A stretch of DNA of 64,000 nucleotides from a virus (Duplodnaviria; Caudoviricetes). Location: positions 19,742 through 83,741 of the IMG/VR virus record IMGVR_UViG_3300005985_000001. The stretch is one strand, 5' to 3'. The notes under the pieces were generated by a model. It was not told the origin of the DNA. It ran no database searches and saw only the letters and a list, made by a program, of their open reading frames with translations. Positions within the stretch are counted from its first letter, which is position 1; the number at the start of each line of letters is the position of its first letter. Shown here one piece after another: positions 1 to 63,626 of the stretch. A program made the position numbers and the translations under genes.

Positions 1-2
1 TC

Positions 3-577: not shown

Positions 578-619
578 TTTCCCCTCACCAGAAAACTAAG
601 GCTTTATAACCAGTATAAC

Positions 620-772: not shown

Positions 773-832
773 TTGATATTCTCCTTCATGAACCATTGTG
801 GTGAATGGATTATTACTGGATGTTACAGAGGA

Positions 833-1087: not shown

Positions 1088-1152
1088 AGTTTTTCCCTTT
1101 CATGGTTTGATGATTAATATTACCTTTTTAATCCACTGGATGTTACGAAAGC

Positions 1153-1374: not shown

Positions 1375-1385
1375 GTATCCTCCAG

Positions 1386-1885: not shown

Positions 1886-1904
1886 TGAGAAATTCTCCTT
1901 CAGG

Positions 1905-7308: not shown

Positions 7309-7694
7309 TAGTTATTCTCTCCTTTTTCGCTGTGATCTTCGTTAAAATCAGTAGACCGAGCGACACTCAGATTTTCCCAGCCACCTGCAAGCTCGATCAG
7401 CCACTCCGGGTAGATTTCATCTACGAACTGAATATCATTCTCGCGGTCTTCGGTTTCGATCATGTCCTGCAACCACTCGCGAAGGGTGCAGTTGCCTTCG
7501 GTGAGACGTTCTAGGAGTTCATTAGGAACACCTGTGAGGAGATTTACGCAAAGTACGGCTCGTTTCATATCTGCTTTTGCGCGATTCTGTTCACCGGGAC
7601 GAAACTGAGCCAATGCGATCACATCGGAACGTTCTGCCGCAATATGAAAACCACTGTAGGCTGTTACCCAGGGTTCGGGAGTGTGACTATTCAT
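7308..7694 (-). CDS. HTPxPW-family paralog 1
   Basis: MNSHTPEPW...AVLCVNLLTG. Confidence 0.75.
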   Translation of the reverse strand: MNSHTPEPWVTAYSGFHIAAERSDVIALAQFRPGEQNRAKADMKRAVLCVNLLTGVPNELLERLTEGNCTLREWLQDMIETEDRENDIQFVDEIYPEWLIELAGGWENLSVARSTDFNEDHSEKGENN

Positions 7695-8116
7695 TAGCTA
7701 TTGCCCTCCATGAATAGGTTGAACTTGTTGATGAGTTTCTGAAGATCGCCAAATGCCTGAAGCTGTTCATTAGTGAATCCGGCACAGAAATTCACACATG
7801 CTGCGGAACGTTCCGCGTTTGCCAGTGCCGACCCATACTGACGGTAGCCAGCCGGGTAATCGCTGCTGTAGACACCTTGTAGGTTACGCTTACGTTCTTC
7901 GAAGTCGTATTCCGACCACTGTGATTCAACCACTTGTGTCACCGGTTCTTCAAAGGTGGCAATTTCCACCGGCTGCATGAACTCTTCTTCACGGTCATAT
8001 TCAATCCGCACAGGAACAGGGCGAATCCCAACCGTCCGATCTCCTGGCTCATAGGGCATGGCATACCAAGGTTCGGGGGTCCAGTCTTCAATTCTCGGCA
8101 TTATGATCCTCCGCAA
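7694..8116 (-). CDS. HTPxPW-family paralog 2
   Basis: WTPEPW...ANAERSAACVNFCAG. Confidence 0.75.
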   Translation of the reverse strand: MRRIIMPRIEDWTPEPWYAMPYEPGDRTVGIRPVPVRIEYDREEEFMQPVEIATFEEPVTQVVESQWSEYDFEERKRNLQGVYSSDYPAGYRQYGSALANAERSAACVNFCAGFTNEQLQAFGDLQKLINKFNLFMEGNS

Positions 8117-9967: not shown

Positions 9968-10354
9968 TTAATTCAACTCACCTTTCGGCAAAAACCAGTC
10001 CAATTCCATCCACGATAACTGTTCCAAATCTCGCTTGTAACTAGAACCTACACGGATGTTATGGGAACAATCACGTAGAATTAAATCTGCGCTTTTGGAA
10101 AGTACATCTTCTGGTGTATCAATACGTAGCAGAGTGCAGTATGAACTATCGGTTACTTGTTCCCACATACGATCATTTGGGTGATAGAAATAGACCGAGA
10201 AGCGTAGAAGTGGCTCATCATCAGGGTCATCAGAATCAAAATAACCACCGTATCCTTCGTCAAGGTACTCCCATACCACTCGGATACCTTCTCCATCCTC
10301 ATATTCTTTTTCTTCAAAAGCTTCGATGAGAGCTTGCCAGTCTTTAGTCATCAT
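9968..10354 (-). CDS. hypothetical protein
   Basis: 128-aa acidic ORF. Confidence 0.7.
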   Translation of the reverse strand: MMTKDWQALIEAFEEKEYEDGEGIRVVWEYLDEGYGGYFDSDDPDDEPLLRFSVYFYHPNDRMWEQVTDSSYCTLLRIDTPEDVLSKSADLILRDCSHNIRVGSSYKRDLEQLSWMELDWFLPKGELN

Positions 10355-10357
10355 TAC

Positions 10358-11386
10358 TTATTTCCTTCCCAGTTTCTTCGCCTGCTTGACGACCTCTTCC
10401 ACTGCTTTGTCCAGATTCCAATCCCGTTCAACCACAAGGTCAGCATCCTTCGCATCGGTGTTGTTGCCGATACTGAGCACCAGATCCGCGTTCAGGTTCT
10501 GCCGTGCCCAGTTCACAGCATTACCGCCATCCATTGCACTGAAGACACAGCCGTATTCTGCAAAACGTGGATTCATGCCTTCTACGAGACAAAAGCCCTC
10601 ATGTGCCCGGTGATCCGCAGATTCCGCGCAGATCTTGGCATAGCGATATAGGTCCCGATGAAACAATGCCCCGTACAAAGACATGGGCATGGTTCGAAAT
10701 GGATCGGCGATGATGTGCGCACGAGTAGCTTCGGTGTAACCACTGCCGGGGACAGGCTGGTTGCCTTCGACCAATGCCGCGTAAACCTGCATTCCTGCTG
10801 CCTCACATGCCCATTGAACGCCAAGCGTAATGCGTACAATCTTGGGAATGAAGTTCGCATCTGCCCACATCTCTCCCATCCCCGCACTGGCAACAATTGC
10901 AATCACAGGGGTTTTTGCAGGTGCCGAGAGGGTTTTACGAAACGGACGAATACGGTTGGGATCATAGGTTCCGGCAGCCGCCGCTTCGACCACTTCACTG
11001 AGCTTGCGTCGGTCCAGCTTGCCGTGTGGCAGGTCGCGGATCGTGACCATCGTAGCGACTTTCTCAAAGGCACTCACCAATCGACGGGCTGCACGAGAGG
11101 CTTCCTGACGAATATCTTCGGGCAAATGAAAGTTTTCAACGGCTCGAATCGCATCTGCGCGATTATGAATCTGCTGAGGAATGTATTTGTTTCCTTCGCA
11201 GGAAAACCAATCATCCTTTCTCCGCTTGTGGTATTTGGGATCTTCTCTTGGATAAACAGCTTCATCGCGCATATTCACTTTGAAAGACAATGCGAGTCCC
11301 TTTTTGCCAGCATAGGACTCGATTTCAAACAATGGTTTATGAACGGTATCTTGGGGCTGTGTAATCAGTTCTGGTAATGCATTCAT
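10358..11386 (-). CDS. vWA-like (CobT-type) partner of MoxR ATPase
   Basis: GKLDRRKL...PFRK then VIAIVASAGM (degenerate MIDAS position); coupled downstream of the AAA gene. Confidence 0.65.
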   Translation of the reverse strand: MNALPELITQPQDTVHKPLFEIESYAGKKGLALSFKVNMRDEAVYPREDPKYHKRRKDDWFSCEGNKYIPQQIHNRADAIRAVENFHLPEDIRQEASRAARRLVSAFEKVATMVTIRDLPHGKLDRRKLSEVVEAAAAGTYDPNRIRPFRKTLSAPAKTPVIAIVASAGMGEMWADANFIPKIVRITLGVQWACEAAGMQVYAALVEGNQPVPGSGYTEATRAHIIADPFRTMPMSLYGALFHRDLYRYAKICAESADHRAHEGFCLVEGMNPRFAEYGCVFSAMDGGNAVNWARQNLNADLVLSIGNNTDAKDADLVVERDWNLDKAVEEVVKQAKKLGRK

Positions 11387-12501
11387 CGGAGAAGTCCCTG
11401 ATCTTCGACTTCGACGCGACTGAAAAATGCGCGATTCGCAGCATCTGCAAGTGAGAAGTTTTTCACGGTCATCAGATTCGCCATCCGTGCCAGTGTACGC
11501 GGCGAAACATTCAGGCGCAGCGCATTCTGGTCAATCTTCTCGCGCATCTTGATCGCCCAGGCCTCCAGGGTTTTGGCAACTTTTCTGGGATAACCTTTCG
11601 ACTCCAGGATCAAAGCTTCGTTTTCATAGCCGGTCTGGATATAGGCGAAGCGATCCAGTTGAGCCGCATCCAATGCGTTGCGCCCCACGTAGTGCCGATT
11701 TGCCCCTGAGCCATAGGTGTTCATCGTGACGATGATCTGGCAGGGTCCCTGCGGGAAGATACGATCATGCTCCGGTGCGCCAGGCGTAGTGACATAGCGG
11801 GTTTGTCCATTGATGCCAGGGTCCTGAAACACGGATTGCAGGCACATCACCGCACGAGGATTGGCTGCATCGTATTCATTGATGACGACATCGCATCCTT
11901 CACGGAAGGCACGAGTAATCGCACCATGGATCCAGACATTGCCCTGTTCCGGGTGATAGCTCATGCCCCCAACTAACTCAAATGGCTCGATGAACTCGGT
12001 AATGTCAATCACATAGAAAGAGCGGTCTAGTGAATTGAACGCTTCGTATGAAACGGTCGATTTGCCGTTTCCGGTGGGGCCCACAATCGCAATCGCTGGA
12101 TAAACGTCAGGATGCTGGAGATAGAAGATCAGTTCATCGAACCACGAAGGCGGTACAAAGCCGATGGGTGTAGGTTTTGGCTCGGCATAGAGCATGGGAT
12201 GGTTGCGGCTGTGACTTCTACGCCAGCGGACTCGCCAGTGTTCTGCTTCAATGGAAGGTGGCAGGACTGGCTCTGGAACAGGCGCAGGTGCAACTTCACC
12301 CAATGGTTTTACATATTGACAGTAGTAGCGCAGGCGATCTGGGAGTTCCTTGCCCCGATACACATTTGCCCAGAGATTCGGGTCAAAAGTCGCGCCTGCA
12401 CTTTCCAGTTGATTTCTGACTTTAAACGTGCCGCCCAGCAGCACCCATTCCAGTGGGGCAAGCTGCAACGCAGCAATCGGTTGTGCCCGTTCACTCGGCA
12501 T
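11383..12501 (-). CDS. MoxR/CbbQ-like AAA+ ATPase
   Basis: GPTGNGKST Walker A, VVINEYD Walker B, TMNT sensor, LDAAQLDRF, SPR. Confidence 0.9.
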   Translation of the reverse strand: MPSERAQPIAALQLAPLEWVLLGGTFKVRNQLESAGATFDPNLWANVYRGKELPDRLRYYCQYVKPLGEVAPAPVPEPVLPPSIEAEHWRVRWRRSHSRNHPMLYAEPKPTPIGFVPPSWFDELIFYLQHPDVYPAIAIVGPTGNGKSTVSYEAFNSLDRSFYVIDITEFIEPFELVGGMSYHPEQGNVWIHGAITRAFREGCDVVINEYDAANPRAVMCLQSVFQDPGINGQTRYVTTPGAPEHDRIFPQGPCQIIVTMNTYGSGANRHYVGRNALDAAQLDRFAYIQTGYENEALILESKGYPRKVAKTLEAWAIKMREKIDQNALRLNVSPRTLARMANLMTVKNFSLADAANRAFFSRVEVEDQGLLR

Positions 12502-14236: not shown

Positions 14237-14872
14237 CTAAGCTTGTTTCTCAAACTCGGCAAGGATCATGTTTTCTAGGCGAGTATTGAACTCATCTAAC
14301 TCCGCATCCTGTGCAGCAGCCCACGCAGCAGCCCGTGCAGCATCCTGTGCAGCAGCCCACGCAGCAGCCCGTGCAGTAGCCCACGCAGTAGCCCACGCAG
14401 CAGCCCACGCAGCATCCCACGCAGTAGCCCAGTCTTCATCAGTCAGTTCGCCATTAATCCATTGCTGCTTTAGATCAAGCAGTTCATAATGAAGCCGATT
14501 TGCAGTTTGAACTTTTGGATTTGTGCTAGACGGCGAAAACAAATCAAGAGCTTCACGAGCAACATCGACTGAGAATTGATGCAAAATTCTTTCTACATCG
14601 AGCATCCAGAGCGTTTTGCGGTATCGTGCAACCAGCTTATCGCTGCCTTCAACAACATCACCCCAACATTCGACACGGCAAACGACAAGCGCATTGTTGC
14701 TGGCATAACTCAATGCATCAATCACTCGTCGGCTAGCGTGAAGCCCATATGCGCAAAGTTCAAGCTCGCCTTCTACAGAGAGTGTTTCTCCAACCTGGAC
14801 AATGCGATTATCGCCATGTTTCAGTTTGCGATCCGAACCAATGAAATGCCAAGCCAGAATTGAATCAGACAT
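14237..14872 (-). CDS. phage protein with AAWAAA repeats
   Basis: LELCAYGLHAS N-terminal domain plus C-terminal Ala/Trp tetrapeptide repeats, an architecture recalled from many phages. Confidence 0.8.
   Translation of the reverse strand: MSDSILAWHFIGSDRKLKHGDNRIVQVGETLSVEGELELCAYGLHASRRVIDALSYASNNALVVCRVECWGDVVEGSDKLVARYRKTLWMLDVERILHQFSVDVAREALDLFSPSSTNPKVQTANRLHYELLDLKQQWINGELTDEDWATAWDAAWAAAWATAWATARAAAWAAAQDAARAAAWAAAQDAELDEFNTRLENMILAEFEKQA
14324..14430. repeat. about 9 tandem 12-nt units (GCAGCAGCCCAC-like) encoding AAWA repeats
   Basis: Visible directly, including a duplicated 36-nt block. Confidence 0.9.
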
Positions 14873-14916
14873 TTGAAGCTTCTCCTTCTAACCTTGTGGT
14901 GTAGGTGTTTATACTG

Positions 14917-14929
14917 ATTATACTACGAA
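14917..14929 (-). promoter_or_regulatory. sigma70-like -10 element TTCGTAGTATAAT (copy 1)
   Basis: Identical 13-mer at 20549-20561; AT-rich intergenic gap. Confidence 0.7.
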
Positions 14930-14939
14930 AACGTACAAA

Positions 14940-15251
14940 TTAAAAGAGATGACTGGCAACCTCCAGACTAATAAACGCACGATTGCGTGTCGGCGAGAAA
15001 TGATAATCGATGCCCATAATGAAGGGATCCAGTCCATCACTGGGAATCCGTGCAGAGAGCAAGGCTTTATCCAATTCTTCTTCAATGTACTCGAAGTTCA
15101 TTTGTTCCGGTTCCAGATCCACCCACAGAAACATCCAGCGCCGGGCGTAAAAGCCTTTGCTGTCATAGTGCGGATTGCTGGATACAACCAGGTGAAACTT
15201 CGGGATGCGATTGCACAAGTCGGAACGTTCCGCTTCGGTGAGGTTAAGCAT
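14940..15251 (-). CDS. hypothetical protein
   Basis: 103-aa ORF, GGAG RBS. Confidence 0.7.
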   Translation of the reverse strand: MLNLTEAERSDLCNRIPKFHLVVSSNPHYDSKGFYARRWMFLWVDLEPEQMNFEYIEEELDKALLSARIPSDGLDPFIMGIDYHFSPTRNRAFISLEVASHLF

Positions 15252-15266
15252 GGATTACTCCTAAAG

Positions 15267-15620
15267 TCAGGATAAGCGGTTAATTCGCATTTCCAGATTG
15301 TGAATGTACTGTGCCAGTACAAGATTATCAGGGATACCCATCACGCGAGCCAGTATAGTGATTAAGGCGTACTGACCATTAGCGTCTATCAACAGCCTTT
15401 CTGGTGCGTGACTACTACGAGGTCGCTCTGATTCACCTAATTCACAAAGCCAATAACCACCCGCCGGATCAAGTTCGGTAATATGGAATAGCTGGTTTTG
15501 AACGTGTTTTGTGCTAAGATCGTCTGCAATCAGCACCCAATCTCCAACTTTAAACTTATGTGTTGTTTGCATCTTATGTTTACTCTCCGTCTTCCAGATA
15601 TGCTTTACGAAGAATTGCAA
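15267..15620 (-). CDS. hypothetical protein (SH3/KOW-like N-terminus)
   Basis: FKVGDWVLI; real start probably MQTTHK. Confidence 0.65.
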   Translation of the reverse strand: MQFFVKHIWKTESKHKMQTTHKFKVGDWVLIADDLSTKHVQNQLFHITELDPAGGYWLCELGESERPRSSHAPERLLIDANGQYALITILARVMGIPDNLVLAQYIHNLEMRINRLS

Positions 15621-15924
15621 TGATTTCTACGACAGAGAACTGGTCAAGTCCTTCTCTTGTGTCATAGTATGCTTCATACAAGTCGTCAAGGAACTCAGCC
15701 AGCATTTCCTGTTCTTCATCGCTGAACATGTTTACTCCGATGCGCTTGTGCCAGTCTTCAACCGCTTGCTCTAGTAGTCCCAAAGCAATGTGTTCTGGAA
15801 ATGCCACGTAGAGATCGTGGGTGGTAACAATCATCTTGGCGATGGGATCACCCGCTGCTTGTGCGGCCAGCAGTATCTCCTTGTTTGTCTTACACCACTC
15901 GAATACAGTTTCATTGGTGAGCAT
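15580..15924 (-). CDS. hypothetical protein
   Basis: 114-aa ORF, AAGGAG RBS. Confidence 0.7.
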   Translation of the reverse strand: MLTNETVFEWCKTNKEILLAAQAAGDPIAKMIVTTHDLYVAFPEHIALGLLEQAVEDWHKRIGVNMFSDEEQEMLAEFLDDLYEAYYDTREGLDQFSVVEIIAILRKAYLEDGE

Positions 15925-27966: not shown

Positions 27967-28039
27967 ACTTTCGTAGCTCAGTTGGTAGAGCACCGATCTC
28001 CAAAATCGGAAGTCAGAGGTTCGAATCCTTTCGAGAGTG
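27967..28039 (+). tRNA. trnW: tRNA-Trp(CCA), 3' CCA not encoded
   Basis: Acceptor ACTTTCG/CGAGAGT; D arm TAGCTCAGTTGGTAGAGC; anticodon arm CCGAT-CTCCAAA-ATCGG; T arm AGAGG-TTCGAAT-CCTTT. Confidence 0.95.
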
Positions 28040-28156
28040 CCTTAGCCCGACTGGGCTAAACACCGAAAACCGTCCGTATGGCGGCTGTTCTCATCGAGGA
28101 ACTAGGTGCTGCCATGTCTCTGTGCATGGAATCGTCGTCATGACAGCGACGAAAGT

Positions 28157-32875: not shown

Positions 32876-33402
32876 TGGCGTACCAGGATGAGAGCGTCCT
32901 CAACATCCTCATCGATGCAATGGATGAGCGCCTGAATGAAGTGCTGGTGGGCGAATCCAACGATGAGACCAAAGCCGGTCTGGTGCGTCCGGGCAACCTT
33001 CAGGAAGACCCCACCGATGCTGGCATCAACATTCTGATCCACGAAGGCGGCGTGGACTGGCAGGATGAACTCTATGTCGAGCAACACGGCATCGATGCGC
33101 CCACCTACGAAATTGGCGGTGTTGAATACTGGTTCCGTCGCTTTGAGATTGAACTGGAACTCTTCTTTGATGGCGAAGACCAACGCGAACCTCCACGACG
33201 AAAAGCTTTGATCATTTACTCACGTGCCAAAAAAGCCCTCACCAGCATGGACATTCCTACTGAAAAAGACAGTTTTGGAGAGCAGGCGCACATGATTCAG
33301 GTACGCAAAGGCTACACCTCCGAAGGCGGCGGTGAAGGCACGTTCATCTGGAATTGCTACCTCTTTGTCGAATTTCTGACGAGTATCCGCGCCAATGCCT
33401 AA
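32875..33402 (+). CDS. head-tail joining / tail terminator-like protein
   Basis: Position, acidic beta-rich sequence. Confidence 0.55.
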   Translation: MAYQDESVLNILIDAMDERLNEVLVGESNDETKAGLVRPGNLQEDPTDAGINILIHEGGVDWQDELYVEQHGIDAPTYEIGGVEYWFRRFEIELELFFDGEDQREPPRRKALIIYSRAKKALTSMDIPTEKDSFGEQAHMIQVRKGYTSEGGGEGTFIWNCYLFVEFLTSIRANA

Positions 33403-34477
33403 TGTGATTGCGATCTTTCCCGGCAAGGAACGCACACCGGGAGGCTGTGAGATTTACCGCACCACCATGCCCTACTATCATCTTCAGAAGAAACACCCTG
33501 ACTGGAAAGCGGACTGGGTATTTGGTGAAACCCTCTGGACGGACATCATGACCCGAGGACCCATTGCCGCCAAGCAGTTTGCCGATCAGTATGACATCTT
33601 TGTGTTTCCCCGAAACTACGTCAAAGATGAAACAGGATTGGATAACTACCGTGAAATCACTGATCTTTTGCATCATCTGGGTAAGCGCCTGATCTACGAA
33701 GTGGATGATGATCTGACCAATCAGGAACGTCAGGTCATTAACGGTGATGCAGTGAGTGTTGCCAAGCTCTGCGATGCTATCACGGTTACGACCAAAGCCC
33801 TCGGCGACCTGATGAAAGCCAGAACCGGCAAGCCCGCCTACGTGCTGCCGAATATGTTTGCCCCAGAAACCTGGCTGGAGCCTTTTGCCGGAACGTTCCG
33901 TTATGCCGACAAGATCACGATTGGTTTGACCGGCTCTCCCACACACGAACGCGATTGGGAAGTGCTCAAAGATGTGCTGCCGAAAGTCGTTCAGGATAAT
34001 GGTGTGCATCTGGTGCTCATGGGCTATCACCCAGAGTATCTTCAGGATTTACCAAATACTTCCTATATTCCAGGTTTGCAGTATAATAGATATGCGCAAG
34101 TCATCCAGACTTGCGACATTATCCTCGCTCCACTCAATCACGAAGTTTTCAATCTTAGTAAATCCCCGATAAAAGTCCTTGAAGGACAAGCTGCCCGACG
34201 CTTCATTGACAAGCGTCCCGCAGGAGCCGCCTGTATTGCCACTGATCATCCGGTCTATCGACTTGCCATAAAGCCTGAAAAAACCGGATTGCTCGTTGAG
34301 CATACGCCGAGCGCCTGGCAGGAAGCTCTGGATCGCATGATCTATGATGAGCGCCTGCGGCATCAGCTTCAATTCAACGGTCATGAATGGGTGCAGAAGC
34401 ACCACGACATCTCCAAGACCGCAACCCTCTGGCGCAACGCCTACGAAAGCATTCTCCGCAAACCCATCCCCGCTTAA
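33395..34477 (+). CDS. GT-B (GT4-like) glycosyltransferase
   Basis: YEVDDD, IGLTGSPTH..DW, DIILAPL...FNLSKSPIKVLE, GLLV motifs. Confidence 0.85.
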   Translation: MPNVIAIFPGKERTPGGCEIYRTTMPYYHLQKKHPDWKADWVFGETLWTDIMTRGPIAAKQFADQYDIFVFPRNYVKDETGLDNYREITDLLHHLGKRLIYEVDDDLTNQERQVINGDAVSVAKLCDAITVTTKALGDLMKARTGKPAYVLPNMFAPETWLEPFAGTFRYADKITIGLTGSPTHERDWEVLKDVLPKVVQDNGVHLVLMGYHPEYLQDLPNTSYIPGLQYNRYAQVIQTCDIILAPLNHEVFNLSKSPIKVLEGQAARRFIDKRPAGAACIATDHPVYRLAIKPEKTGLLVEHTPSAWQEALDRMIYDERLRHQLQFNGHEWVQKHHDISKTATLWRNAYESILRKPIPA

Positions 34478-34498: not shown

Positions 34499-35605
34499 AT
34501 GTCTGTTTCTGCGCAGCTAGGCGACTTTGGATTCGCCATTCAGCCTTCTAAAGTCGGTCGAACTGGAACCTATACCGGTTCCGGTTACAAGTGGTATCGT
34601 ATGGACCCGCTCACGGTCCGTATGGATATTATTCAGGGCGACCAGGTGCTTCCACCCGAAGTTTCGCCGGACATTGTGCCGAAAGGCGCGTATAAGGACG
34701 GCTATTTCGGTGCAGGTCAGGCCGACCTGATCCCGCGTCTTCAGAACTCCTTCGGCGCACTGCTCTGGGGCTTGATGGGCAACGCCTCATCGGTCACAGG
34801 CAAGGACACCGATGGCGTGTCTGCGACGAACGTCAATACTCACATTTTCAGTTACAACCCAAGCGACAAGGCAGATCAGCCCTGGATGTCCTTCCGACGC
34901 CTGATCCCTGGCAAAGTAGCCGCAGATCGCTATGGGCAGACCTTCTTCGATGCCAAAGTTGCCAATGCGCGTATTACTATCCCGCAGAAGGGCAAGCTGA
35001 TGGCGCGAATCACGATGGTGGCCCGTGATGTGGATCAGGAAGAGAACCCCACCTGGGTCTGGGATGTGGACTATGAAGACACGACTTCTACGCCACAATC
35101 CGATCAGGGTTATCTGAAGATGCAGGGTACGGAATTTCCGATCACGGGTGCGGTTTTTGAACTGGACAATGGCTTGACTACGCCAGATCAGGAACGCATC
35201 ATTGGCGATCCCCGCCCTGATGACTTCACGGCACTCTATCGTCCGGCAACCCTGCGGTTTGTCTACAAGTGGGAAGACCCCAGCCTGTATCAGCAGGTAT
35301 TCAATGGCGGCGACGGTCTGACCGACTGGGATCCGCTGCCGAAGATCTTCTCGACGGTTGGCGCGAACTTCGCCTTCGATGCCATGTTCGAGACGCCGTT
35401 GACTATTAGTGGTTCTTCGCCTGCACGAAAGTATGCGGTACGTATTCGTGGCAACAGTGCCACGCTTGCTCCAGATGGCCCAATTGAACTTGCAAGCGCA
35501 ACCCTGCTCCAGCAGGCATTCACGCTGACTATCCTCAAAGCAACCGGCAATGCGCCGTATCTCCAGATTCTGCTCCAGAACGGTGTCACTGGTTATTCTG
35601 CCTAA
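34499..35605 (+). CDS. major tail (tube) protein
   Basis: 368 aa, position before the chaperones, tail-tube-like composition. Confidence 0.8.
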   Translation: MSVSAQLGDFGFAIQPSKVGRTGTYTGSGYKWYRMDPLTVRMDIIQGDQVLPPEVSPDIVPKGAYKDGYFGAGQADLIPRLQNSFGALLWGLMGNASSVTGKDTDGVSATNVNTHIFSYNPSDKADQPWMSFRRLIPGKVAADRYGQTFFDAKVANARITIPQKGKLMARITMVARDVDQEENPTWVWDVDYEDTTSTPQSDQGYLKMQGTEFPITGAVFELDNGLTTPDQERIIGDPRPDDFTALYRPATLRFVYKWEDPSLYQQVFNGGDGLTDWDPLPKIFSTVGANFAFDAMFETPLTISGSSPARKYAVRIRGNSATLAPDGPIELASATLLQQAFTLTILKATGNAPYLQILLQNGVTGYSA

Positions 35606-35627: not shown

Positions 35628-36047
35628 ATGCGTTTGTCCAAGAAGCCCGTTGAGAAGACATTTACGAAAGACTTTGGCGGGGATAAGCCTGCCAGCATCA
35701 CCGTCCGGCAGGCCAACATCGGCGACATCACCAAGCGTAATGGACTCCTTTCGGAGTCCTCGCTGGTACTCAATGATGAATTGCTCGGTCAGGAAATCAA
35801 GCAGGACATCAATTACTACGAGTTGTTCCGCTTTGAAGTGTTCCTGACCCTGACGGCTGCGAACTTCGAAGACGAGGACACCGGTGAGTCTTATTTCACC
35901 TTCGTGAATGGACGCCTGCGCGACCAAGCTGCTTTCGAGAAAGCTTGGAATGCCATGACAGACATCGAAGTCGCGGACTGGATTCACGAGTGCGTGGTGG
36001 AAGTCAACCCACAGTGGAGCCGCCAGGTAGCAGACGCGGGGGAATAG
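35628..36047 (+). CDS. tail assembly chaperone G
   Basis: Between tail tube and TMP; ends GCG GGG GAA TAG. Confidence 0.8.
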   Translation: MRLSKKPVEKTFTKDFGGDKPASITVRQANIGDITKRNGLLSESSLVLNDELLGQEIKQDINYYELFRFEVFLTLTAANFEDEDTGESYFTFVNGRLRDQAAFEKAWNAMTDIEVADWIHECVVEVNPQWSRQVADAGE

Positions 36048-36370
36048 ACCGCCACTTGAAGGCAGTAGGTGATGCTGTCTTCGAGTGGCTGAGTTATCAC
36101 GAGCCGACTGCTCACGACCCACACGGGATCGGAGCAAAACCTGAAGGACCCGAGCCGGAGCGACCAGAAGCCTATGACATTCTTCTGCAACTCCGGCGTT
36201 TTCACTTAACCTGGGCGCAGGGCGGCTACGAAGACCAGCCCTGGCTGCTCACTGAAGAACTCAATGCTGCGTCTGACGCGGAGACCCGGCACAAAAACTT
36301 AATTTTATTGAATCAGAAGCGCCGAGAAGAGTGGGCGGCTTCTCAGAAAGCAAAAGGTCTGCTGACATGA
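36038..36370 (+). CDS. tail assembly chaperone GT extension via -1 frameshift at GGGGGAA (36038-36044)
   Basis: The -1 frame is open to TGA 36368-36370; GGGGGAA is the slippery site described for mycobacteriophage L5-type G/GT genes. Confidence 0.75.
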   Translation, partial: GGIDRHLKAVGDAVFEWLSYHEPTAHDPHGIGAKPEGPEPERPEAYDILLQLRRFHLTWAQGGYEDQPWLLTEELNAASDAETRHKNLILLNQKRREEWAASQKAKGLLT

Positions 36371-39300
36371 GACTTCGGCGCAACATGGCGTTCAATGCCA
36401 ACCTCGATGTAGACAATCAGGATCACTACCGGCACTTGATGAATCGCCTGGATCGTGAAGGCATCAAGTACGGGATGAATGATGTCGATCTGGGCTTTGG
36501 GCGGAACCTCACGGCGATCACCATCAACCAGCGCATCCGCGATAAGGACGTGCAAAGCCACCTCTTCTATGGTCCCGAAGGTGGCTTATATGTCTCTAAC
36601 CCGAACAACACGGGTGGCGTGCGTCCGATCCTGTCCACCATTCGGTTCAATAAAGATGAATCTATCTCGCCTTCCAATCCTCTGATGTCGCCGGTGGATC
36701 GTGTGATTAACATGATCCAGAATCCAAATTGGGAAGACCCAAAGACCAAGCGAGTTTCGCAGTATGGCTTGTCTACGCTGGCACAGAAACAGGGAGCAGA
36801 TAACGTCTCCTGGCAGCGTCTCGAAGCCCAACCCGGTCTGGATCGCCTGTTTCGCAACGGCGTTCAACTGAGCGGTGAAAAGTATAGTTATAACGATAAG
36901 ATTGACCAGCTTAATCGCGCAACCGGAAGTGATTATGTCAACTACGCGAGAGTAGGCGCAGCATATCGGGCGAAAGATTACGAGGCGGTGATTCCCACCA
37001 ACAATGCTGGTGGAATGCTCATTTCAAAACTGAAGGAAGCAAAACTTTTCACCGGTAAAGTTTCGGATGCCGTCATTGGCAGAAACATCTACGAGCCATC
37101 CCCGGAGCCTTTCTACTTTGAAGGTCAGGCAGGTCCGAATCAGTCGGTCGTGCTTCGTGGCGCATTTGATCTTTTCTCGGAAATCCCTGAAGGCGCAGCA
37201 TTTACGGCTGGTTTAGGGGCTGCCAATCGCATCAGTCGTACAGTAACACTCCCAAGAGGGACGACCTATGATCCCGATACAGGTGGGTTGACGCTGGCAA
37301 ATGGCACCGCCTTAAGTGCGGGAACCTATTTTGGCGGGAAGCCGCCCGGCAGTTATAGTGACTATACCCGCCTGGGTGGAAAACGTGAATATAACGACAT
37401 CTTTGGCGTTTCAATGGGAAGTTATCACTCGACGCTGATCGAGAATATTGTTCCCGAACTCAATGATCGTGGGCAGTTCACGGGTCGAGCAACCTTTGAT
37501 GCGCGTGCCATTACCAAAGACGTAGCCATAAAATCATGGATAAAAGCCGAAGGGATGGACATTCACCGTTCGGCAATGCCTTTTGACGAGGAAACAGATC
37601 GGCATGTCGATACCTGGATGCGCTTGCCCGATCTCAAGAAACTGCCTGCACTGGCTTTAAAAGCCCTTGCCGCAGATATGAATAATACAGAAGCTTTTGG
37701 GCAATGGTTCGGTGAACAGGCGTCTGCGCGTGGGATGTCAGCGGACTGGATTGCTCAGAATTTCCAGAATGGGCAGGTCAGTAAAGAAGCCACGCCACTG
37801 GTAACAGAGGCAGCCATTCAGCGTTTATTAAGCAAGGCAACGTACAATCCACAAAATCCGCGTCGGAATGTTCCATTAGGATCAACTGAATACGAAGCCT
37901 TTCGTAATGTGACCTTTATCCATCAGGGACAGTCCTACAATGTACTTGGAAATGTACAAGCCCGCGATGATGGAACCTATCTTGCGGAGACTTTCCATAC
38001 ACCCCGGATTGTCACCGACTACGCGACTAATGTGCGTACTGAACATGTGCGCGATACGATGCGAATTAAGCCGGGAACGCTGTCCATCATGGCACAGAAT
38101 AACCCGGAACTCTTTGATTCGCTGACATCCATTGCTCAGGCAACCCGGAAGAACAACCGCGCTTTTGCCATGACCTCGGCATTTCGCGCCAATAGTTCAT
38201 CCGAACAACGTCAGGCAGTGCAGGATATATTTGGTATCGACAAACTGGATATTGCTCAGGTCGGACGTTTACGAGAAGAATATCTGTCGAATAACACGGA
38301 TGTCAGTGATAGTGGCATGTTCCGTCACATTCTCAGTGGATTGGCTGAGCAGTATGGCGAGCAAGCACTGGAACTGAAGACTCCACAGGGGTCGATGATC
38401 CTACCCAATGCCCGAACGATTCGGGCAGGATTGCGACGAAACAATGATAACCCGGAATTAATCAACAACTGGTCAAAAAGTGCAGCGGGTCTGATTACTG
38501 CACTAGGGGATGATTCTATTTCTCCCGATATTATTCAGAACATGGCCAATGACACTTATGCCAGAATGGAAGAACATTCTGGCAAGCGGGGTGTTCAGCA
38601 AAAAGCCACGAGTATTGAACTCGGGCGGTTAGGCGGTTTTGCGCGTTCAACGCCTGGTATTCCCGATAACATGGCAATTACCTCATTGGCAACCATTCAA
38701 AAACGGACGGGTATCGAGAATCCTGATGAGATACGCCGGATGGCAGCGCAAGGTGACCTTGTGCTCTCTGGCTGGCGCTATCCCTCTACGCACGCGAAAG
38801 ACTTTGCTGCATCGGTTCGACTGGGCATTTATGAAGATCAACCGCAGTGGTACAAAGATCGCTATCTAAATCCAGGAAGGGATGTTTACACCTCTCCTGA
38901 AATCATGCGGGCGTTGCGCGGAGACAATGATGGCGACCGCTTTCAAGCTGTCCTAAATCGTTTTCGAACGCAAGCAGCCGAATTCGGGAAATCCCTTACT
39001 GCACTCACGCCAAGACAGGTCGTTCAACGTGCAGCCAATGCGTTTGAGAGCGAACGCACCAAGTTCATCAAAACGATGGCGGAACGTTCCGGGATGGATC
39101 TGGCGAACACACCTTTGTCTGCGTTCTCATCTTTCTCCTATTCCCAGAAACAAATGCGCGAAGATTTTCTCACAGAGGAGCGAGAAGCCAAGAGTCTGAT
39201 TGGCATCAACACCAACACCTTTAACCGCAGTATGGGGATGGCAGCGCGTTCTGGTGCAGAGCAGCTTTTTGGAGTCGATAGTCCGCTGACGGACCGGATT

Positions 39301-42300
39301 GCAGTGGCGTTTTCGAGCATTGAGAATATCACCGGCGCATCAGCACTCGACCGCGCTGCTAACAAGGACACTGCTCTGGAATACTTGCAGCAGGTGGGAC
39401 AGGACAAGGGGCTGTATCGCACAGGTGCACGATTCTGGAACCGCTCAACCGGCAAAACTCTGACCGGACCAGAATCTCAATTCCAGGAAATTTTTAAACA
39501 ACTTTCTAGTATTGGTTCTAACCTGGAAGGTGAGCCGGTGCTGGGTATTAGCCCAGATCAGGAATACCGGCAAAAACTAGCGCCTGCGATTGCGACGGCA
39601 ATGCTCACGCGCGACGAGATGAAACGCCTGGCGGATTCTGGCGAACTGGATCAGCGCATCAACCAGATGGCAGATATGCTTACTCAGCGCCGTGCCACTG
39701 GAGAAGACATCAGCACCCAGCTTTTGCCACTGACCGGCGCTGCAAAATTTGCGGAGTGGGGTGAAGGCAACGGTTCTGGATTGGGTTCACAGTCCAGTAT
39801 TGGACAGTGGATTACTGGACAGATTGCCAATAACTATCGCTTGTCACAACGCAAAGATAAAAGTGGCAATAAGATGGTTGACGCCAACGGGAAACCCGTC
39901 ATTATGGGTGAGTTCCCGACCGACTGGGGCGCACAGTATGAGAATGCAGGCAAGATTGCCCAGAGCATACAAGAATTTAATACCAATCTCGGCAAGCGGC
40001 GAGGGAATAATACACTGGAACAGGCGGTTCGCTCAGTAGCCGGTGGCGGCGAACGTCTGAAAAACTTCCTCGGTGGTATGTTCCCTGGACTGGCGCAGGC
40101 TACACAGCGATTCGCTGTTGCACCGGTTGATGATCCAAGTTTGTACAATCCAGGCGCTTACCTGACCGCCTCACAGTGGACCAGTGGCACCGGAGTAGAC
40201 GATGAACTGCTGCGTCTGGTGAATTTGAACACCACCTCAGCGGAACGTTCCGGCGTAATTGCCGAACTGATGAAGTCCGGTGCATTCCAGGAGTATCGTC
40301 CCTACAGCGGTCCTGCCAATAACGCGGATAAAGTCGGGACGCGCATGGAGAATGTGCTGACCGGCAAACTGGCAGCCCCTGAGAACCAACAGATTCTTAT
40401 GGCGAATGCTCGGCGTCGTATGGGCAACTCTCGGGCGGACTTCGGGATGCGCGACAGTGCAGGCAACCTGGTAGTCGGTGACATCAAGACCAAGAGCCGC
40501 ACGGGGCTGATGAGTGACCTTCTGGGTCCGTCTCTGCGTGGCGACATCATGGGTCAGGTCTCCAACTACATCACCGGTACTCGTATCGACGGCGGCGAAC
40601 GTCAGACCGGCGATTACGGCGTGGTCGTAGGCGGGATTCGTCTTAGCGACAACCCGAACATGCCGGAATCTGAAGTCGCGGCTGGGTTCGAGCAGGCGCA
40701 CGATCTGGCGATGCAGATGTACAGTAACAGCCAGATGCCGACTTCATGGGCAAATGCAGGCTGGACGCAGGAACGATGGGAGTCTCATCGTCAAGCCTCG
40801 ATGCAGGCCATGCAGGACATTTACGCCGCTTCGGGGATGAAAGTGGCTGCGCGGGTTGTGACCGGTGAAGAAGCAGAACAGTTCCTCAATGCCCGTCAGG
40901 GCGACATCTACAATCTGAAGTCGATTCGTCCTGAGCATCGTGCTGCGGACATGGCGGGTCGTGCGCAGCAAATCATGGCGCTGCGTGGTGGCGGCAATAT
41001 CAGTGGTTCTGGAGTAGGCTCTCCGCCCCCTCCAAACATGCCTGGCGCACCTCCGGCTCCACCTTCGGGCGACGATGGCTATGTTCCGTCCAGTGCCAGT
41101 GGAAGCGGCGGCTCGGGTGGCGGCGGCTCAGTGGTCAACAATAACACTGTCTACCGGATGTCCAACCCACGCATCACATCCAAGCAGATTGCCGAAGCAG
41201 AGATCGCACTGGAACATCTTGGCGAAGCCGCGAAGACCTTTGCAACCGGATCTAAAGAAGCCCGCGAAGAGATGCTCAAGCACTACGATGCTTTGAAGAC
41301 TGTCTCTTCATACCTGAGTGACGTGGAGCGGGCACAGCGTTCGCCGGACGGCTTCAATACCAACAATCCTAACTATCTTCTGCTTCAGCAGCGATTGGGC
41401 AGCGGGCGTGCAGGTGGCTCGGCGTTTGGCACCATCAACAATGCCGTTTATGATCCTGCATTGAGCAATGCGGCTTATGAAGCCCAGCTTGCCAATATGC
41501 GAGACACCGGCGAAGAGCCGCCGCAATCTCGGCTCCAGCGCATGATGCGCGGCGGGCAGGATCTCGCTGAACGTATCATCAAAACGCAGGGCTTGTTCCA
41601 TGCAAAGCTGGCGTTCAATATGTTTGCAGGCTCGGCGATTGGCGCAGCCGATAACTGGCAGGATCAGCAAGCTGCACAGGGAATGATGCTGGCACAAGCC
41701 GGTCAGTTGACGTTCAATCAACTGATGGGCAGTCAATTCGGAACCATGCAGCGTCGTAACATCGCCCTTCAGGAAGGCGGGCTTGCCTATGGGCAACAGG
41801 TCTACAGCGCCTATGCGCCGTTGATCAACTTCGCAGCCGGTCCCGACACTGCGAAAGGTCCGCTGGGCGCAATGGCAGGGATTGGCGTGCCTGCGTTTGG
41901 CGTTGCGGCGGCTGCGACGACACTTACTGGCAGTCCTCTCTTTGGTGCTGTAGCGGGTGGTGTCACAGCCGGTATCGGCACGCTTGGCTATATGTCATCG
42001 AATGCCGTAAACTATCAGGCAGTCGGCGCATTTAATCAGCAGCGCAATGCCGGGATGGGCTTACAGGCAATGTTCCAGAATACAGCCGGAGCAGCCGGGG
42101 CTTTCTGGAATGATCTGGGGCGCGGGTTGGGTCTTGTTTCCGACGAAGACTACCAGCGGTATCTGGATGCGCCTCAGTTCAACGACCTGATTCAACGTTA
42201 TTCACGCGGCGAAGTTGGGCGTCAGGAAGCAATTGCTCAAGCCGAAGCCATGCGTTTCAATGGTGGCGACCTGATGGCAGGTGGCTTGGAGGCCTGGGTG

Positions 42301-44634
42301 CAGTCCCAGACTCGCGCAGGTGCATCTCGTGAAACGGCATTGAGCAACTACAGCTACTGGGCACGTTATAATCCGAATTATATGCCAGGCGGCGACCTTG
42401 CCGGTCAGATGACCCGCATTGCAATGGGCGGCGGGGATACAGGAACGGTTGCCCAGTCCTTCGCTGGATCGCGCGGTATCAGCCCGTTTAGTCAGTCTAT
42501 GATGGATAGCGTAAATCGCTATGCCATGAACATGCTCACTGATCAACAGAATATGGGCTTGTTCACGGAAGCATCCAGCTTTGTGGGACAGCAGATTGGT
42601 GGTGTCAATCAGGCACTGCGTATGGCAGGACTGGGTAGCAGCCAGGCTGATCTCCTTCAGATGGTGCAATTCCTGCAAAATGGTGGGTCACTTGACCAGT
42701 TCAATGCAGGACTTCAGAGCCGAGGTACTGCTGCCTCGCTTCGCATGAGTACACCGGGTTTCTTCGATGTGGGTGGCTATCGACTGAAAGATAACTGGGA
42801 AGTATTCTCTGGTCAGGGTGATTTTGTCACGACTGAACGCTTGCAGCAGCAGGCAATGCAAGCCGGGCAGATGTATAACCAGTTCCTCGCCAATGGCGCT
42901 TCGCCGGGAGATGCCTTTGCCAATGCTTACCGCTACGGCACGGACTACGATGAAGCCAGCGCGAACCGTCAATTCCAAATGCTTCAGGGCAATCAGCGAG
43001 TCATTTCACTTGAAGGTGTCCGAACCCAGAATGCTGCATTGCAAACGATCAATCCGAACACGGGGATGGGCGCATACTACAACAACGTCAATGCCGAGAA
43101 TATCGCGGCGCTGAGAGCCAACAATCCCTTTGGCTTGTTCAACCTCACCGACGAAGAAGCACGCATGGGCGAGATGGGCTGGCAGAACCAGATCCTGCGC
43201 GCCAATCGCGGGCTGGAAGCTTACCAGTATGGGATGCGAGTGCGTCAGCGTGATCTGGGCTATGCGCTCACCACTGGCAATATGTTCCAGGCAGGGGGTC
43301 TGTTCGGTGCAGACGGAATGGCATTCAACCCCGGCGATGGCAGAGGCTTCTGGCAATTGGAAGATGCATCTCGTCGTCTGAATCGTGCGCAGCAGTCCTT
43401 CTCGTATGAGCAGGATACGGCACAACTGGGGATTCGTCAGCGTGAATTCGAGCTTTCTGGTTTGCAGTGGCAGACCAATTACGAATTGCAGCAGCGCCAG
43501 TTTGCATACAATACGCAGTATCAACGCGAAACACTGGGCATCTCGCGTGGACGCGAACTGGAACAGCAAAGCTGGCGACGAGAGGATCTTGCTTTTTCCA
43601 GATCACAACTCGATATTGGCTTTGCGTGGAATATGGAAGATGCAGATCGCAATATCCGCTATGCGCGTGGGCGTGAGAAGCGCGATCTGATGCGTCAGAA
43701 AGCCCGCGAAGTCATTCGCTACTCGATGGAATCGTCTCAACTGGATCGTCAGACCGAGCGCAATGAACAGCAAGTCGGCTGGTCGCAGCAGGACTTCGAG
43801 CGCCAGAAGCAGTATTTCGAACAGGGCGTTCAGTTCCAGAAAGAGGCGATGGAGAACCAGAAGAAGTTCTACGACCAGAACCGTGAACTGGATCGCCAGC
43901 GTCTTGACCTGGCAAAGCAGGCGCATGACCGTCAACTGGGCTGGATGCAGGAAGGCTGGCAGATCGAAGATCAGCGTATCCTGCTCGAACGCCAGAACTA
44001 CCAGTTGTCCTACAAGCAGCAGGTCGATATGGATACCCGGATTCGTGAGAACACGCTCACGGTGCAGCGATGGAGCGATGCGATTGATCAGGCAGGACGT
44101 GTCATGCAGGAACGGATTGCAGCGATCAATACTGCGGTGAGTACCGGGAACATCACTAGCCCACAAGCGCAACGGAACCTGAACAATTATTCCTATACAG
44201 GCTTGTCGCAGGATTCGGGTAGTGGCAGCAGTTCGAGCGGCACGGGATTGCCCGTGAATCCAGTCCTGAACCGCACCTATACAGCGAACGATGGTCGTCG
44301 CTTCACTTATACGGCACGCGGCTGGCTGCCAGCAGGCAGTGACTCTAGCACATCGCGCTACGGTCAGTCGGGTGGATTTGCTCAAGGTGGTTATACGGGT
44401 ACAGGCGATCCCAATGAAGTTGCAGGGGTGGTTCACAAGGAAGAGTACGTGGTGCCGCAGGGTGGCGCACTGGTGGTTCGTGGAGCCAGTGAAGAGCAGC
44501 TTAAGCGTCAGGATCGGATGATCGCGCTTCTGGAGAAGATCGCCGATAACCCGACGCTGTTCCAGGTCGTGATGGGAGATGGCAATAAGAGCAAAGCCAC
44601 TCCGATGTATCGTGAAGCGGCAGCACGGCTCTAG
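36367..44634 (+). CDS. giant tape measure protein fused to a two-barrel RNA polymerase core and a PD-(D/E)xK nuclease-like domain
   Basis: TMP position after G/GT; C-terminal FAQGGYTG...VAGVVHKEEYVV lambda-type TMP motif; N-terminal GKRG, RYP and DNDGD motifs; ADF...DIK...QVSNY. Confidence 0.85.
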   Translation: MRLRRNMAFNANLDVDNQDHYRHLMNRLDREGIKYGMNDVDLGFGRNLTAITINQRIRDKDVQSHLFYGPEGGLYVSNPNNTGGVRPILSTIRFNKDESISPSNPLMSPVDRVINMIQNPNWEDPKTKRVSQYGLSTLAQKQGADNVSWQRLEAQPGLDRLFRNGVQLSGEKYSYNDKIDQLNRATGSDYVNYARVGAAYRAKDYEAVIPTNNAGGMLISKLKEAKLFTGKVSDAVIGRNIYEPSPEPFYFEGQAGPNQSVVLRGAFDLFSEIPEGAAFTAGLGAANRISRTVTLPRGTTYDPDTGGLTLANGTALSAGTYFGGKPPGSYSDYTRLGGKREYNDIFGVSMGSYHSTLIENIVPELNDRGQFTGRATFDARAITKDVAIKSWIKAEGMDIHRSAMPFDEETDRHVDTWMRLPDLKKLPALALKALAADMNNTEAFGQWFGEQASARGMSADWIAQNFQNGQVSKEATPLVTEAAIQRLLSKATYNPQNPRRNVPLGSTEYEAFRNVTFIHQGQSYNVLGNVQARDDGTYLAETFHTPRIVTDYATNVRTEHVRDTMRIKPGTLSIMAQNNPELFDSLTSIAQATRKNNRAFAMTSAFRANSSSEQRQAVQDIFGIDKLDIAQVGRLREEYLSNNTDVSDSGMFRHILSGLAEQYGEQALELKTPQGSMILPNARTIRAGLRRNNDNPELINNWSKSAAGLITALGDDSISPDIIQNMANDTYARMEEHSGKRGVQQKATSIELGRLGGFARSTPGIPDNMAITSLATIQKRTGIENPDEIRRMAAQGDLVLSGWRYPSTHAKDFAASVRLGIYEDQPQWYKDRYLNPGRDVYTSPEIMRALRGDNDGDRFQAVLNRFRTQAAEFGKSLTALTPRQVVQRAANAFESERTKFIKTMAERSGMDLANTPLSAFSSFSYSQKQMREDFLTEEREAKSLIGINTNTFNRSMGMAARSGAEQLFGVDSPLTDRIAVAFSSIENITGASALDRAANKDTALEYLQQVGQDKGLYRTGARFWNRSTGKTLTGPESQFQEIFKQLSSIGSNLEGEPVLGISPDQEYRQKLAPAIATAMLTRDEMKRLADSGELDQRINQMADMLTQRRATGEDISTQLLPLTGAAKFAEWGEGNGSGLGSQSSIGQWITGQIANNYRLSQRKDKSGNKMVDANGKPVIMGEFPTDWGAQYENAGKIAQSIQEFNTNLGKRRGNNTLEQAVRSVAGGGERLKNFLGGMFPGLAQATQRFAVAPVDDPSLYNPGAYLTASQWTSGTGVDDELLRLVNLNTTSAERSGVIAELMKSGAFQEYRPYSGPANNADKVGTRMENVLTGKLAAPENQQILMANARRRMGNSRADFGMRDSAGNLVVGDIKTKSRTGLMSDLLGPSLRGDIMGQVSNYITGTRIDGGERQTGDYGVVVGGIRLSDNPNMPESEVAAGFEQAHDLAMQMYSNSQMPTSWANAGWTQERWESHRQASMQAMQDIYAASGMKVAARVVTGEEAEQFLNARQGDIYNLKSIRPEHRAADMAGRAQQIMALRGGGNISGSGVGSPPPPNMPGAPPAPPSGDDGYVPSSASGSGGSGGGGSVVNNNTVYRMSNPRITSKQIAEAEIALEHLGEAAKTFATGSKEAREEMLKHYDALKTVSSYLSDVERAQRSPDGFNTNNPNYLLLQQRLGSGRAGGSAFGTINNAVYDPALSNAAYEAQLANMRDTGEEPPQSRLQRMMRGGQDLAERIIKTQGLFHAKLAFNMFAGSAIGAADNWQDQQAAQGMMLAQAGQLTFNQLMGSQFGTMQRRNIALQEGGLAYGQQVYSAYAPLINFAAGPDTAKGPLGAMAGIGVPAFGVAAAATTLTGSPLFGAVAGGVTAGIGTLGYMSSNAVNYQAVGAFNQQRNAGMGLQAMFQNTAGAAGAFWNDLGRGLGLVSDEDYQRYLDAPQFNDLIQRYSRGEVGRQEAIAQAEAMRFNGGDLMAGGLEAWVQSQTRAGASRETALSNYSYWARYNPNYMPGGDLAGQMTRIAMGGGDTGTVAQSFAGSRGISPFSQSMMDSVNRYAMNMLTDQQNMGLFTEASSFVGQQIGGVNQALRMAGLGSSQADLLQMVQFLQNGGSLDQFNAGLQSRGTAASLRMSTPGFFDVGGYRLKDNWEVFSGQGDFVTTERLQQQAMQAGQMYNQFLANGASPGDAFANAYRYGTDYDEASANRQFQMLQGNQRVISLEGVRTQNAALQTINPNTGMGAYYNNVNAENIAALRANNPFGLFNLTDEEARMGEMGWQNQILRANRGLEAYQYGMRVRQRDLGYALTTGNMFQAGGLFGADGMAFNPGDGRGFWQLEDASRRLNRAQQSFSYEQDTAQLGIRQREFELSGLQWQTNYELQQRQFAYNTQYQRETLGISRGRELEQQSWRREDLAFSRSQLDIGFAWNMEDADRNIRYARGREKRDLMRQKAREVIRYSMESSQLDRQTERNEQQVGWSQQDFERQKQYFEQGVQFQKEAMENQKKFYDQNRELDRQRLDLAKQAHDRQLGWMQEGWQIEDQRILLERQNYQLSYKQQVDMDTRIRENTLTVQRWSDAIDQAGRVMQERIAAINTAVSTGNITSPQAQRNLNNYSYTGLSQDSGSGSSSSGTGLPVNPVLNRTYTANDGRRFTYTARGWLPAGSDSSTSRYGQSGGFAQGGYTGTGDPNEVAGVVHKEEYVVPQGGALVVRGASEEQLKRQDRMIALLEKIADNPTLFQVVMGDGNKSKATPMYREAAARL

Positions 44635-63591: not shown

Positions 63592-63626
63592 ACAGGTCTC
63601 GGAACGTTCCGAGACCTGTGCTTTTT
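63592..63626 (+). terminator. 28-bp perfect palindrome followed by a U-tract
   Basis: ACAGGTCTCGGAACGTTCCGAGACCTGT then GCTTTTT. Confidence 0.7.

Follow-up and report, generated by a model that had tools for sequence, protein, structure and literature searches.

A predicted two-barrel RNA polymerase fused to the tail tape measure protein of an uncultured phage

A 64,000-nucleotide stretch of an uncultured phage genome (bases 19742-83741 of the 83,741-bp IMG/VR virus record IMGVR_UViG_3300005985_000001; hereafter the window, whose own coordinates are used below) carries a giant gene whose product, we consider it probable, is a tail tape measure protein led by an active two-barrel RNA polymerase that would be injected to transcribe the earliest phage genes. 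A tape-measure-fused virion RNA polymerase was shown experimentally in 2024 for gp96 of phage P23-45 (Chaban et al. 2024, PMC10770324; PDB 8H2M, 8H2N); the protein described here appears to be of the same kind, and to belong to a different family. We establish here the predicted fold, the conservation of its motifs, the fusion, the position of the gene, and synteny across the lineage; from gp96 and from tape measure biology we infer catalysis, presence in virions, ejection, and the genes to be transcribed. The giant gene is laid out as follows, all on the plus strand, with residues numbered from the GTG at 36331 (subtract 12 for numbering from the ATG at 36367, which is M13):

36367-44634, plus strand: giant gene encoding predicted polymerase, predicted nuclease, and tape measure; 2755 residues from the ATG at 36367
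36958-38055, plus strand, residues ~210-575: predicted beta/Rpb2-like half, beta-rich, with the first double-psi barrel and the conserved K235, G288, and K401
38056-38610, plus strand, residues ~576-760: helical connector between the barrels, confidently modelled
38611-39030, plus strand, residues ~761-900: predicted beta-prime-like double-psi beta-barrel, with G768-G769, R816-Y-P818, and the metal-binding loop D865-N-D867-G-D869
39145-40020, plus strand: predicted helical region after the barrel, a 42-residue helix (residues 939-980) with G958, then helices with D1007 to residue ~1230
40078-41010, plus strand, residues ~1250-1560: optional, predicted PD-(D/E)xK (Cas4/RecB/lambda-exonuclease-like) nuclease module, from motifs, profile, and model
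40918-41130, plus strand, residues ~1530-1600: Gly/Ser/Pro-rich linker from the enzymatic half to the tape half, from composition
41131-44631, plus strand, residues ~1601-2767: tape-measure part, from PHROG matches and position

The longest open reading frame (ORF) of the giant gene runs from GTG 36331 to 44634 (2767 residues), and the true start is probably ATG 36367, given its ATGA overlap with the preceding stop codon and its use as first codon of the database form P0002 (2755 residues). A first-pass annotation, made from the letters alone, had proposed a polymerase from a series of short strings, all of which lie exactly where it placed them when residues are counted from GTG 36331: SGKRG at 750-754, GGFARSTPGIPDNMAIT at 768-784, SGWRYPSTH at 813-821, LRGDNDGDRF at 862-871 (DNDGD at nucleotides 38923-38937), IGINTN at 957-962, and SALDRAANK at 1004-1012. 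DNDGD is the sole DxDxD in the giant protein. Chaban et al. (PMC10770324, Supplementary Data 4) filtered for [RK]xP lying 20-100 residues before DxDxD, and this pattern is present here (R816-Y-P818 ... D865-N-D867-G-D869) and in 13 of 15 homologues. By itself the motif is weak evidence, since 10% of shuffles of the giant protein carry the published signature [RK]xPx{20,100}DxDxD, and 5% carry DxDGD; the observation is raised above chance by conservation in 16 giant homologues and by the predicted fold.

The homologues were collected with HMMER, which compared residues 251-1150 exhaustively with 1.84 billion representatives and found 16 proteins, query included, all of them giants of 1805-4304 residues, and no stand-alone form. 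Polymerase and tape measure share one uninterrupted ORF, with the polymerase N-terminal, in all 16 homologues, the protein of this phage included, and close to the Gly/Ser/Pro linker we found no internal ribosome site followed by an in-frame start. At 20-39% identity, the aspartates D865, D867, and D869 together with P818 are invariant in the 16 homologues, and G768, G769, G958, D1007, K235, G288, and K401 are kept in at least 15 of the 16, if not in all; the metal-site aspartates and the other residues just listed on the beta-prime side lie within the strings quoted in advance by the first-pass annotation, which had also named conservation of DxDGD among homologous tape measures as a check, and DxDxD proves invariant. 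On the beta side K235 is invariant, and of the lysines guessed at by that annotation K401 is kept in at least 15 of 16 homologues and K405 is invariant in the 5 closest; equivalence of these residues to the lysines of the beta subunit is putative.

Sequence annotation is silent on the polymerase region: Pfam, PHROGs, and NCBIfam gave nothing significant, and neither phmmer nor a profile search against PDB sequences found anything. Residues 201-1250 were modelled with AlphaFold2 on the 16-sequence alignment (mean predicted local distance difference test, pLDDT, 78; predicted template-modelling score, pTM, 0.72), and the model was compared with the PDB (by Foldseek), with 48,161 representative PDB chains (by VIA-align, which is independent of Foldseek), with BFVD, and with the ESM Atlas. 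Specifically, i) 50 of the 50 PDB matches listed by Foldseek are two-barrel RNA polymerases (Rpb2/beta, beta-prime, the AR9 non-virion polymerase, and QDE-1), with expect values (E) from 7e-4 to 6e-3; ii) the best 13 of the 48,161 chains are all RNA polymerases, including RNA polymerase II, mycobacterial beta-prime, and RDR2, and in the same comparison QDE-1 scored Z 10.4 (root-mean-square deviation, rmsd, 4.8; 396 residues aligned), gp62 of P74-26 Z 8.7, and P23-45 gp96 (8H2M) Z 8.2 (rmsd 6.0; 297 aligned; model 19-930, that is residues 219-1130, against chain 335-1099), RDR2 reaching Z 11.2 in a second structure comparison; iii) the best BFVD matches are a protein of Microcystis phage MaMV-DC (E 4.8e-12) and a fragment of a 'Siphoviridae sp. 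ctnpt50 minor tail protein' (E 1.8e-8), and proteins of Acinetobacter phage ME3 and crAss-like polyprotein fragments (E 6e-4 to 9e-4) were also found; and iv) 10 of the 10 ESM Atlas matches listed by shape are RNA polymerase clusters, RdRP (RNA-dependent RNA polymerase) spanning the query, Rpb2_6 covering 16-574, and Rpb1 416-1038. The two-barrel polymerase that had been proposed from motifs is thus matched, in the PDB, BFVD, and the ESM Atlas, almost only by such RNA polymerases. Structures 6VR4 (phi14:2 gp66) and YonO were absent among the structure matches listed, an absence that says nothing on relatedness.

The predicted model (pLDDT 78) has two double-psi beta-barrels, the beta-like one first and the beta-prime-like one second, so that the fold whose absence the first-pass annotation would have held against its own proposal is the fold obtained. 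The beta-like half is N-terminal, and model residues 9-375 align to Rpa135, bacterial beta, and plastid beta chains; the beta-prime-like half (residues ~620-1235 aligned) carries DNDGD. For model residues 561-710 the aligned counterparts are E. coli beta-prime starting at residue 345 and residues 374-531 of plastid beta-prime (Z 9.1, rmsd 3.1, 121 aligned), and the pairing of GGFARS in the GGFARSTPGIPDNMAIT region with SGRSVI of beta-prime, suggested by the first-pass annotation, agrees with the former alignment, give or take a few residues. Isolated double-psi barrels (CDC48-N, VAT-N, and designed barrel proteins) align to model residues 562-700, and the single-chain enzymes QDE-1, RDR2, gp62, and gp96 span both barrels. 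Several beta-prime/Rpb1 chains align from model residue ~420, within the connector, which is possibly clamp-like; downstream, beta-prime chains align through their residue ~1355 (rmsd 3.5-8 Å), and the helix at 939-980 is a candidate bridge helix. The model and its matches support the conclusion that the first ~1230 residues adopt a single-chain two-barrel RNA polymerase fold, presumably a catalytic one. The polymerase region that the first-pass annotation gave as 36367-39400 extends beyond 39400, over residues ~210 to 1230.

The remainder of the giant protein supports its identification as the tail tape measure protein. Its C-terminal GGYTG...VHxEEYVVPQ motif (residues 2677-2733) is matched by phrog_1506 (E 1.2e-6), phrog_16823, phrog_21845, and phrog_24, all annotated 'tail length tape measure protein'. 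Conservation within the tape is highest in a helical stretch rich in Gln and Arg at residues ~2300-2600, and a hydrophobic Gly/Ala-rich segment lies at 1843-1866. Pfam and NCBIfam models, including any lambda-type model held there, gave no tape-measure match, and the term 'lambda-type' that had been applied to the C-terminal motif is for this reason unsupported; the assignment of the gene itself as tape measure holds, on the four PHROG matches and on its position after the tail tube gene and a pair of small ORFs. The genes leading up to it are:

24851, rightward arm: terminase
28322, rightward arm: portal
30740, rightward arm: major head protein
32222, rightward arm: SU10-type adaptor
33395-34477, plus strand: GT-B glycosyltransferase, between the neck and tail-tube genes
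34499-35605, plus strand: tail tube protein gene (Pfam Phage_tube_2, E 1.3e-9; phrog_290, minor tail protein)
35628-36370, plus strand: two small overlapping ORFs (35628-36047 and, in the -1 frame, 35945-36370), likely a G/GT tail assembly chaperone pair

The tail tube gene lies directly 5′ of the chaperone-like pair, and the giant gene follows both and precedes the distal tail genes. This order (portal, capsid, adaptor, in some cases the glycosyltransferase, tube, two small ORFs, giant ORF) is kept in the four homologue loci inspected for synteny, L003, L007, L008, and L009, where the small ORFs encode ~140 and 105-120 residues (69 in L008). The pair itself is without a family match; a G-run (GCGGGGGAATAG) stands immediately before the stop of the first small ORF, whose 3′ end (36036-36047) reads GCG GGG GAA TAG, and this run is the sole candidate -1 slip site into the overlapping ORF and not a canonical X XXY YYZ heptamer. 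The GT-B gene is also found at 7028-8110 of L003 and 7077-8168 of L009, and its conserved position in at least two related phages suggests virion glycosylation.

Taken together, the parts of the giant protein would form a chain running from beta-like barrel through connector to a beta-prime-like barrel that houses the DNDGD metal site, and on through bridge-helix-like helices, optional nuclease module, and linker to a helical, membrane-active tape. Such a chain would be synthesized as one piece, assembled within the tail, and ejected at infection; if P23-45 gp96 is a guide, a channel through the envelope would be formed by the tape part, and the head-proximal polymerase would encounter the leading end of the incoming DNA and transcribe the earliest genes independently of the host RNA polymerase.

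Several observations weigh against this interpretation. R816, of the RxP motif, is replaced in 3 of 16 homologues; K752/R753 of SGKRG and H821, which the first-pass annotation had offered as polymerase residues, are unconserved, as is K1012, and all four are probably coincidental for that reason. The structure scores are moderate (Z 8-11, template-modelling scores 0.16-0.40), as expected of a large multidomain model built from only 16 sequences. We found no sequence-level similarity to gp96 or to any solved polymerase. In the model the connector is a folded unit of ~180 residues, which makes passage through the tail tube harder to picture. Finally, we were unable to find a promoter-like motif specific to one genome end, and sigma-70-like promoters at the right end are at chance level.

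The unconserved residues, and a motif that 10% of shuffles produce by chance, are what one would see if the polymerase-like region were an inactive relic serving as a structural or plug domain, or if the motifs were a coincidence. We regard this as very improbable: the three aspartates, P818, G768-G769, and D1007 do not vary among homologues whose identity is otherwise 20-39%, whereas inactive relics usually lose the metal site, and the polymerase fold is recovered from four structure libraries.

The awkwardness of threading a folded connector through the tube would vanish if the giant protein were a polyprotein, cleaved at the Gly/Ser/Pro linker to release an enzymatic half that either acts only in the producing cell or is packaged elsewhere, leaving a mature tape without polymerase. 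The linker is long and flexible (residues ~1530-1600), and the tape half alone (~1170 residues) would be enough for an ordinary long tail. Yet the fusion has been kept in every one of the 16 homologues with no free-standing version among the representatives searched, neither a protease gene nor a cleavage signal came to light, and the P23-45 polymerase is found in virions as part of full-length gp96; we give the polyprotein scheme little credence.

Between polymerase and tape lies a module, present in about 6 of 16 family members (query included), that is likely a Cas4/RecB-like nuclease as predicted from motifs and model. E1340, D1370, D1384-x-K1386, and Q1409xxxY1413 are invariant in the 6 members with the module, and over the E...D...DxK stretch a profile match (E 0.0086) was obtained to 4ic1_A ('Crystal structure of SSO0001'), which we take to be a Cas4 nuclease. 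In a model of pLDDT 65, the motif residues fall on a helix-strand-strand-helix core in the expected order. The best 14 of 48,161 chains are all PD-(D/E)xK nucleases (Cas4, RecE, lambda-exonuclease, MGME1, and Dna2-type) at Z 6.9-5.1: Cas4 7mi4 6.9, SSO0001 4ic1 6.8, LHK-Exo 6.6, MGME1 6.3, RecE 5.8, and lambda exonuclease 5.4, all below 8, and Foldseek E-values for the module are 0.1 or worse.

The neighborhood of a nuclease that could make single-stranded DNA or ends bears on what the polymerase might copy. An active polymerase delivered with the tape could prime DNA replication, or copy single-stranded DNA or RNA, rather than carry out promoter-directed early transcription. Its best structure matches, QDE-1 and RDR2, copy RNA or single-stranded DNA; as noted, no early-promoter motif emerged, and no second phage polymerase to which transcription could be handed over was found. 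For the latter we scanned ORFs of at least 200 residues, where no further DxDxD occurs except in the DnaN clamp and an antisense ORF and no T7-like match was seen, although a very divergent or split enzyme could escape such a scan; no unannotated ORF of the early arm exceeds 390 residues. Against this alternative, a primase zinc finger of DnaG type and a DnaB helicase are encoded by the phage itself, and the Z gaps are small (QDE-1 10.4, gp62 8.7, gp96 8.2). We consider such a role decidedly unlikely, and prefer transcription of the earliest genes by the injected enzyme.

A bolder proposal, which we put forward as speculation and think rather unlikely, is that the tape-borne enzyme is the phage's only polymerase in this lineage and is co-injected with the Cas4/RecB-like nuclease of the same chain, the pair acting at the entering DNA end, for example by exposing a single-stranded DNA template or attacking host DNA. 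The palindromes scattered through these genomes (GGAA-N2-4-TTCC, and here 28 copies of CGGAACGTTCCG) might then be recognition or pausing sites of the polymerase-nuclease pair. If true, polymerase and nuclease would be injected as one module, in contrast to the relay of two polymerases in P23-45.

The only motifs that we found repeated between genes are the ribosome-binding site and a palindrome. The 12-bp palindrome CGGAACGTTCCG has 28 exact copies in 83.7 kb; the window holds 21 exact and 6 one-mismatch copies against 0.11 expected (for example at 2179, 4170, 6769, 16783, 18285, 27631, 32207, 39080, 40241, 48658, 57480, and 63600). Copies lie in both arms, 8 of them in the 11% of the DNA that is non-coding and the remainder inside genes. 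With 20 of 28 copies inside genes, and in both arms, we rejected a promoter as its main role; the sequence is probably a site for a phage-encoded dimeric DNA-binding or DNA-modifying protein. Related phages have over-represented GGAA-N2-4-TTCC palindromes of their own (GGAACGTTCC in L003, GGAAATATTTCC in L008, and GGAACCGGTTCC-like in L009), several of them inside the giant tail gene. A 28-bp perfect palindrome, ACAGGTCTCGGAACGTTCCGAGACCTGT, at 63592-63619, has T-runs on both sides and the 12-bp palindrome at its centre, and looks like a bidirectional terminator.

The 83,741-bp record has 123-bp terminal repeats and a G+C content of ~51%. A single tRNA-Trp (CCA) gene lies at 27967-28041 on the plus strand, between the terminase and portal genes, and a tandem array of a 12-nucleotide unit at 14287-14442, inside the minus-strand ORF 14237-14872, encodes a 4-residue protein repeat, of which at least nine copies overlap in register. 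Among the phage's own genes are those for a DnaN sliding clamp, RecA, a DnaB helicase, and a primase zinc finger of DnaG type (3473-4573 of the window, minus strand; 6753-7925, 10150-11652, and 14532-15626, minus strand, of locus L004). A scan of the large ORFs revealed no DNA polymerase, and the phage may therefore recruit the host replicase through its own clamp. At the left genome end, outside the window, a large serine recombinase with Resolvase and Recombinase domains (2-1909, minus strand, locus L004) hints at a temperate lifestyle; against that hint, a search of 185,579 species genomes turned up no prophage relative. We were unable to find a clue to the host: species-representative genomes and IMG/VR gave neither a prophage nor a relative, and DnaN used as a host probe gave no match. 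Nor was any cultured relative found, as tblastn of the polymerase, tape half, and terminase against 50,697 phage records gave no match, for the polymerase core not even at E 10.

The design seen in the P23-45 family recurs, without sequence relationship, in a family of siphophage-like viruses that are uncultured and apparently non-thermophilic and number at least 16 clusters, which suggests that a tape-measure-fused polymerase is a widespread strategy, or one that arose more than once. Annotation by sequence has missed it, Pfam, PHROGs, and NCBIfam being blank on the polymerase region. The family also raises the questions of how a folded polymerase with its connector would pass through a tail tube, whether one injected enzyme can suffice without a second phage polymerase, and what a nuclease does in a tape measure.

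Several known systems invite comparison. Among single-chain two-barrel polymerases, the eukaryotic RNA-silencing enzymes QDE-1 of Neurospora and plant RDR2 (PDB 2J7N, 7Y7P, 7W82) are the best structural matches (Z 10.2-11.2, 330-413 residues aligned, both barrels) and share RxP...DxDGD; they differ in copying RNA or single-stranded DNA and in having no tail context, and are only ~9-11% identical. P23-45 gp64 and P74-26 gp62 (PDB 8F72, 8F5M) are likewise single-chain and two-barrelled (Z 8.7-8.8 over ~320 residues, both barrels), but are free early proteins of ~600 residues that do not enter virions, and a counterpart gene was not found here. SPbeta YonO, described as a single-chain phage polymerase distantly homologous to multisubunit RNA polymerases (PMC5467207), is a free protein of ~100 kDa and not a virion or tail component. 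Crass-like phi14:2 gp66 (PDB 6VR4) resembles the giant ORF in placing a two-barrel polymerase within a very large phage protein, but its crAss-like carriers are podovirus-like and the proteins are not tape measures; the MaMV-DC and ctnpt50 proteins also place a two-barrel polymerase in a very large phage protein, and are uncharacterised.

The closest system in kind is gp96. The first-pass annotation knew of no documented fusion of a polymerase to a bona fide tape measure, and gp96 is one: its polymerase is active and is carried by virions within the full-length protein, with DFDGD at residues 779-783 and a minimal active fragment of 327-1124, and this flat, clamp-less enzyme transcribes the pre-early genes, including that for the second polymerase, gp64 (PMC10770324). 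The same type of fusion occurs in P74-26, G20c, and TSP4 (PMC10770324), and the literature searched describes no virion RNA polymerase fused to a tape measure outside the Thermus phages related to P23-45. In gp96 and in the giant ORF alike the polymerase is N-terminal in the tape chain, with DxDGD at 779 and 865, respectively, and the two structures align at Z 8.2 over 297 residues; in both phages a membrane-type segment follows downstream, the genome is ~84 kb, the early arm runs leftward, and the structural arm runs rightward. The differences are equally plain: i) no sequence similarity emerges at the profile level, where hhalign gave the family profile a probability below 1% with both gp96 1-1200 and a P23-45/stolb1/TSP4 alignment, and tblastn of gp96 reached only Thermus phages; ii) the protein is 2767 rather than 5002 residues long; iii) in the model a folded helical connector of ~180 residues replaces the short disordered connector of the clamp-less gp96; iv) no metallopeptidase domain was found, and a predicted Cas4/RecB-like nuclease module is added; and v) no gp64-like second polymerase was found, in a phage of ~51% G+C without a cultured relative. 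The optional nuclease, the lack of a detected second polymerase, and the folded connector are features of this family's own. As profile comparison with gp96 finds nothing, we conclude, on sequence grounds, that the present family is the same kind of protein from a different family, a sequence-unrelated relative in kind of the tape-measure fusion first shown in 2024.

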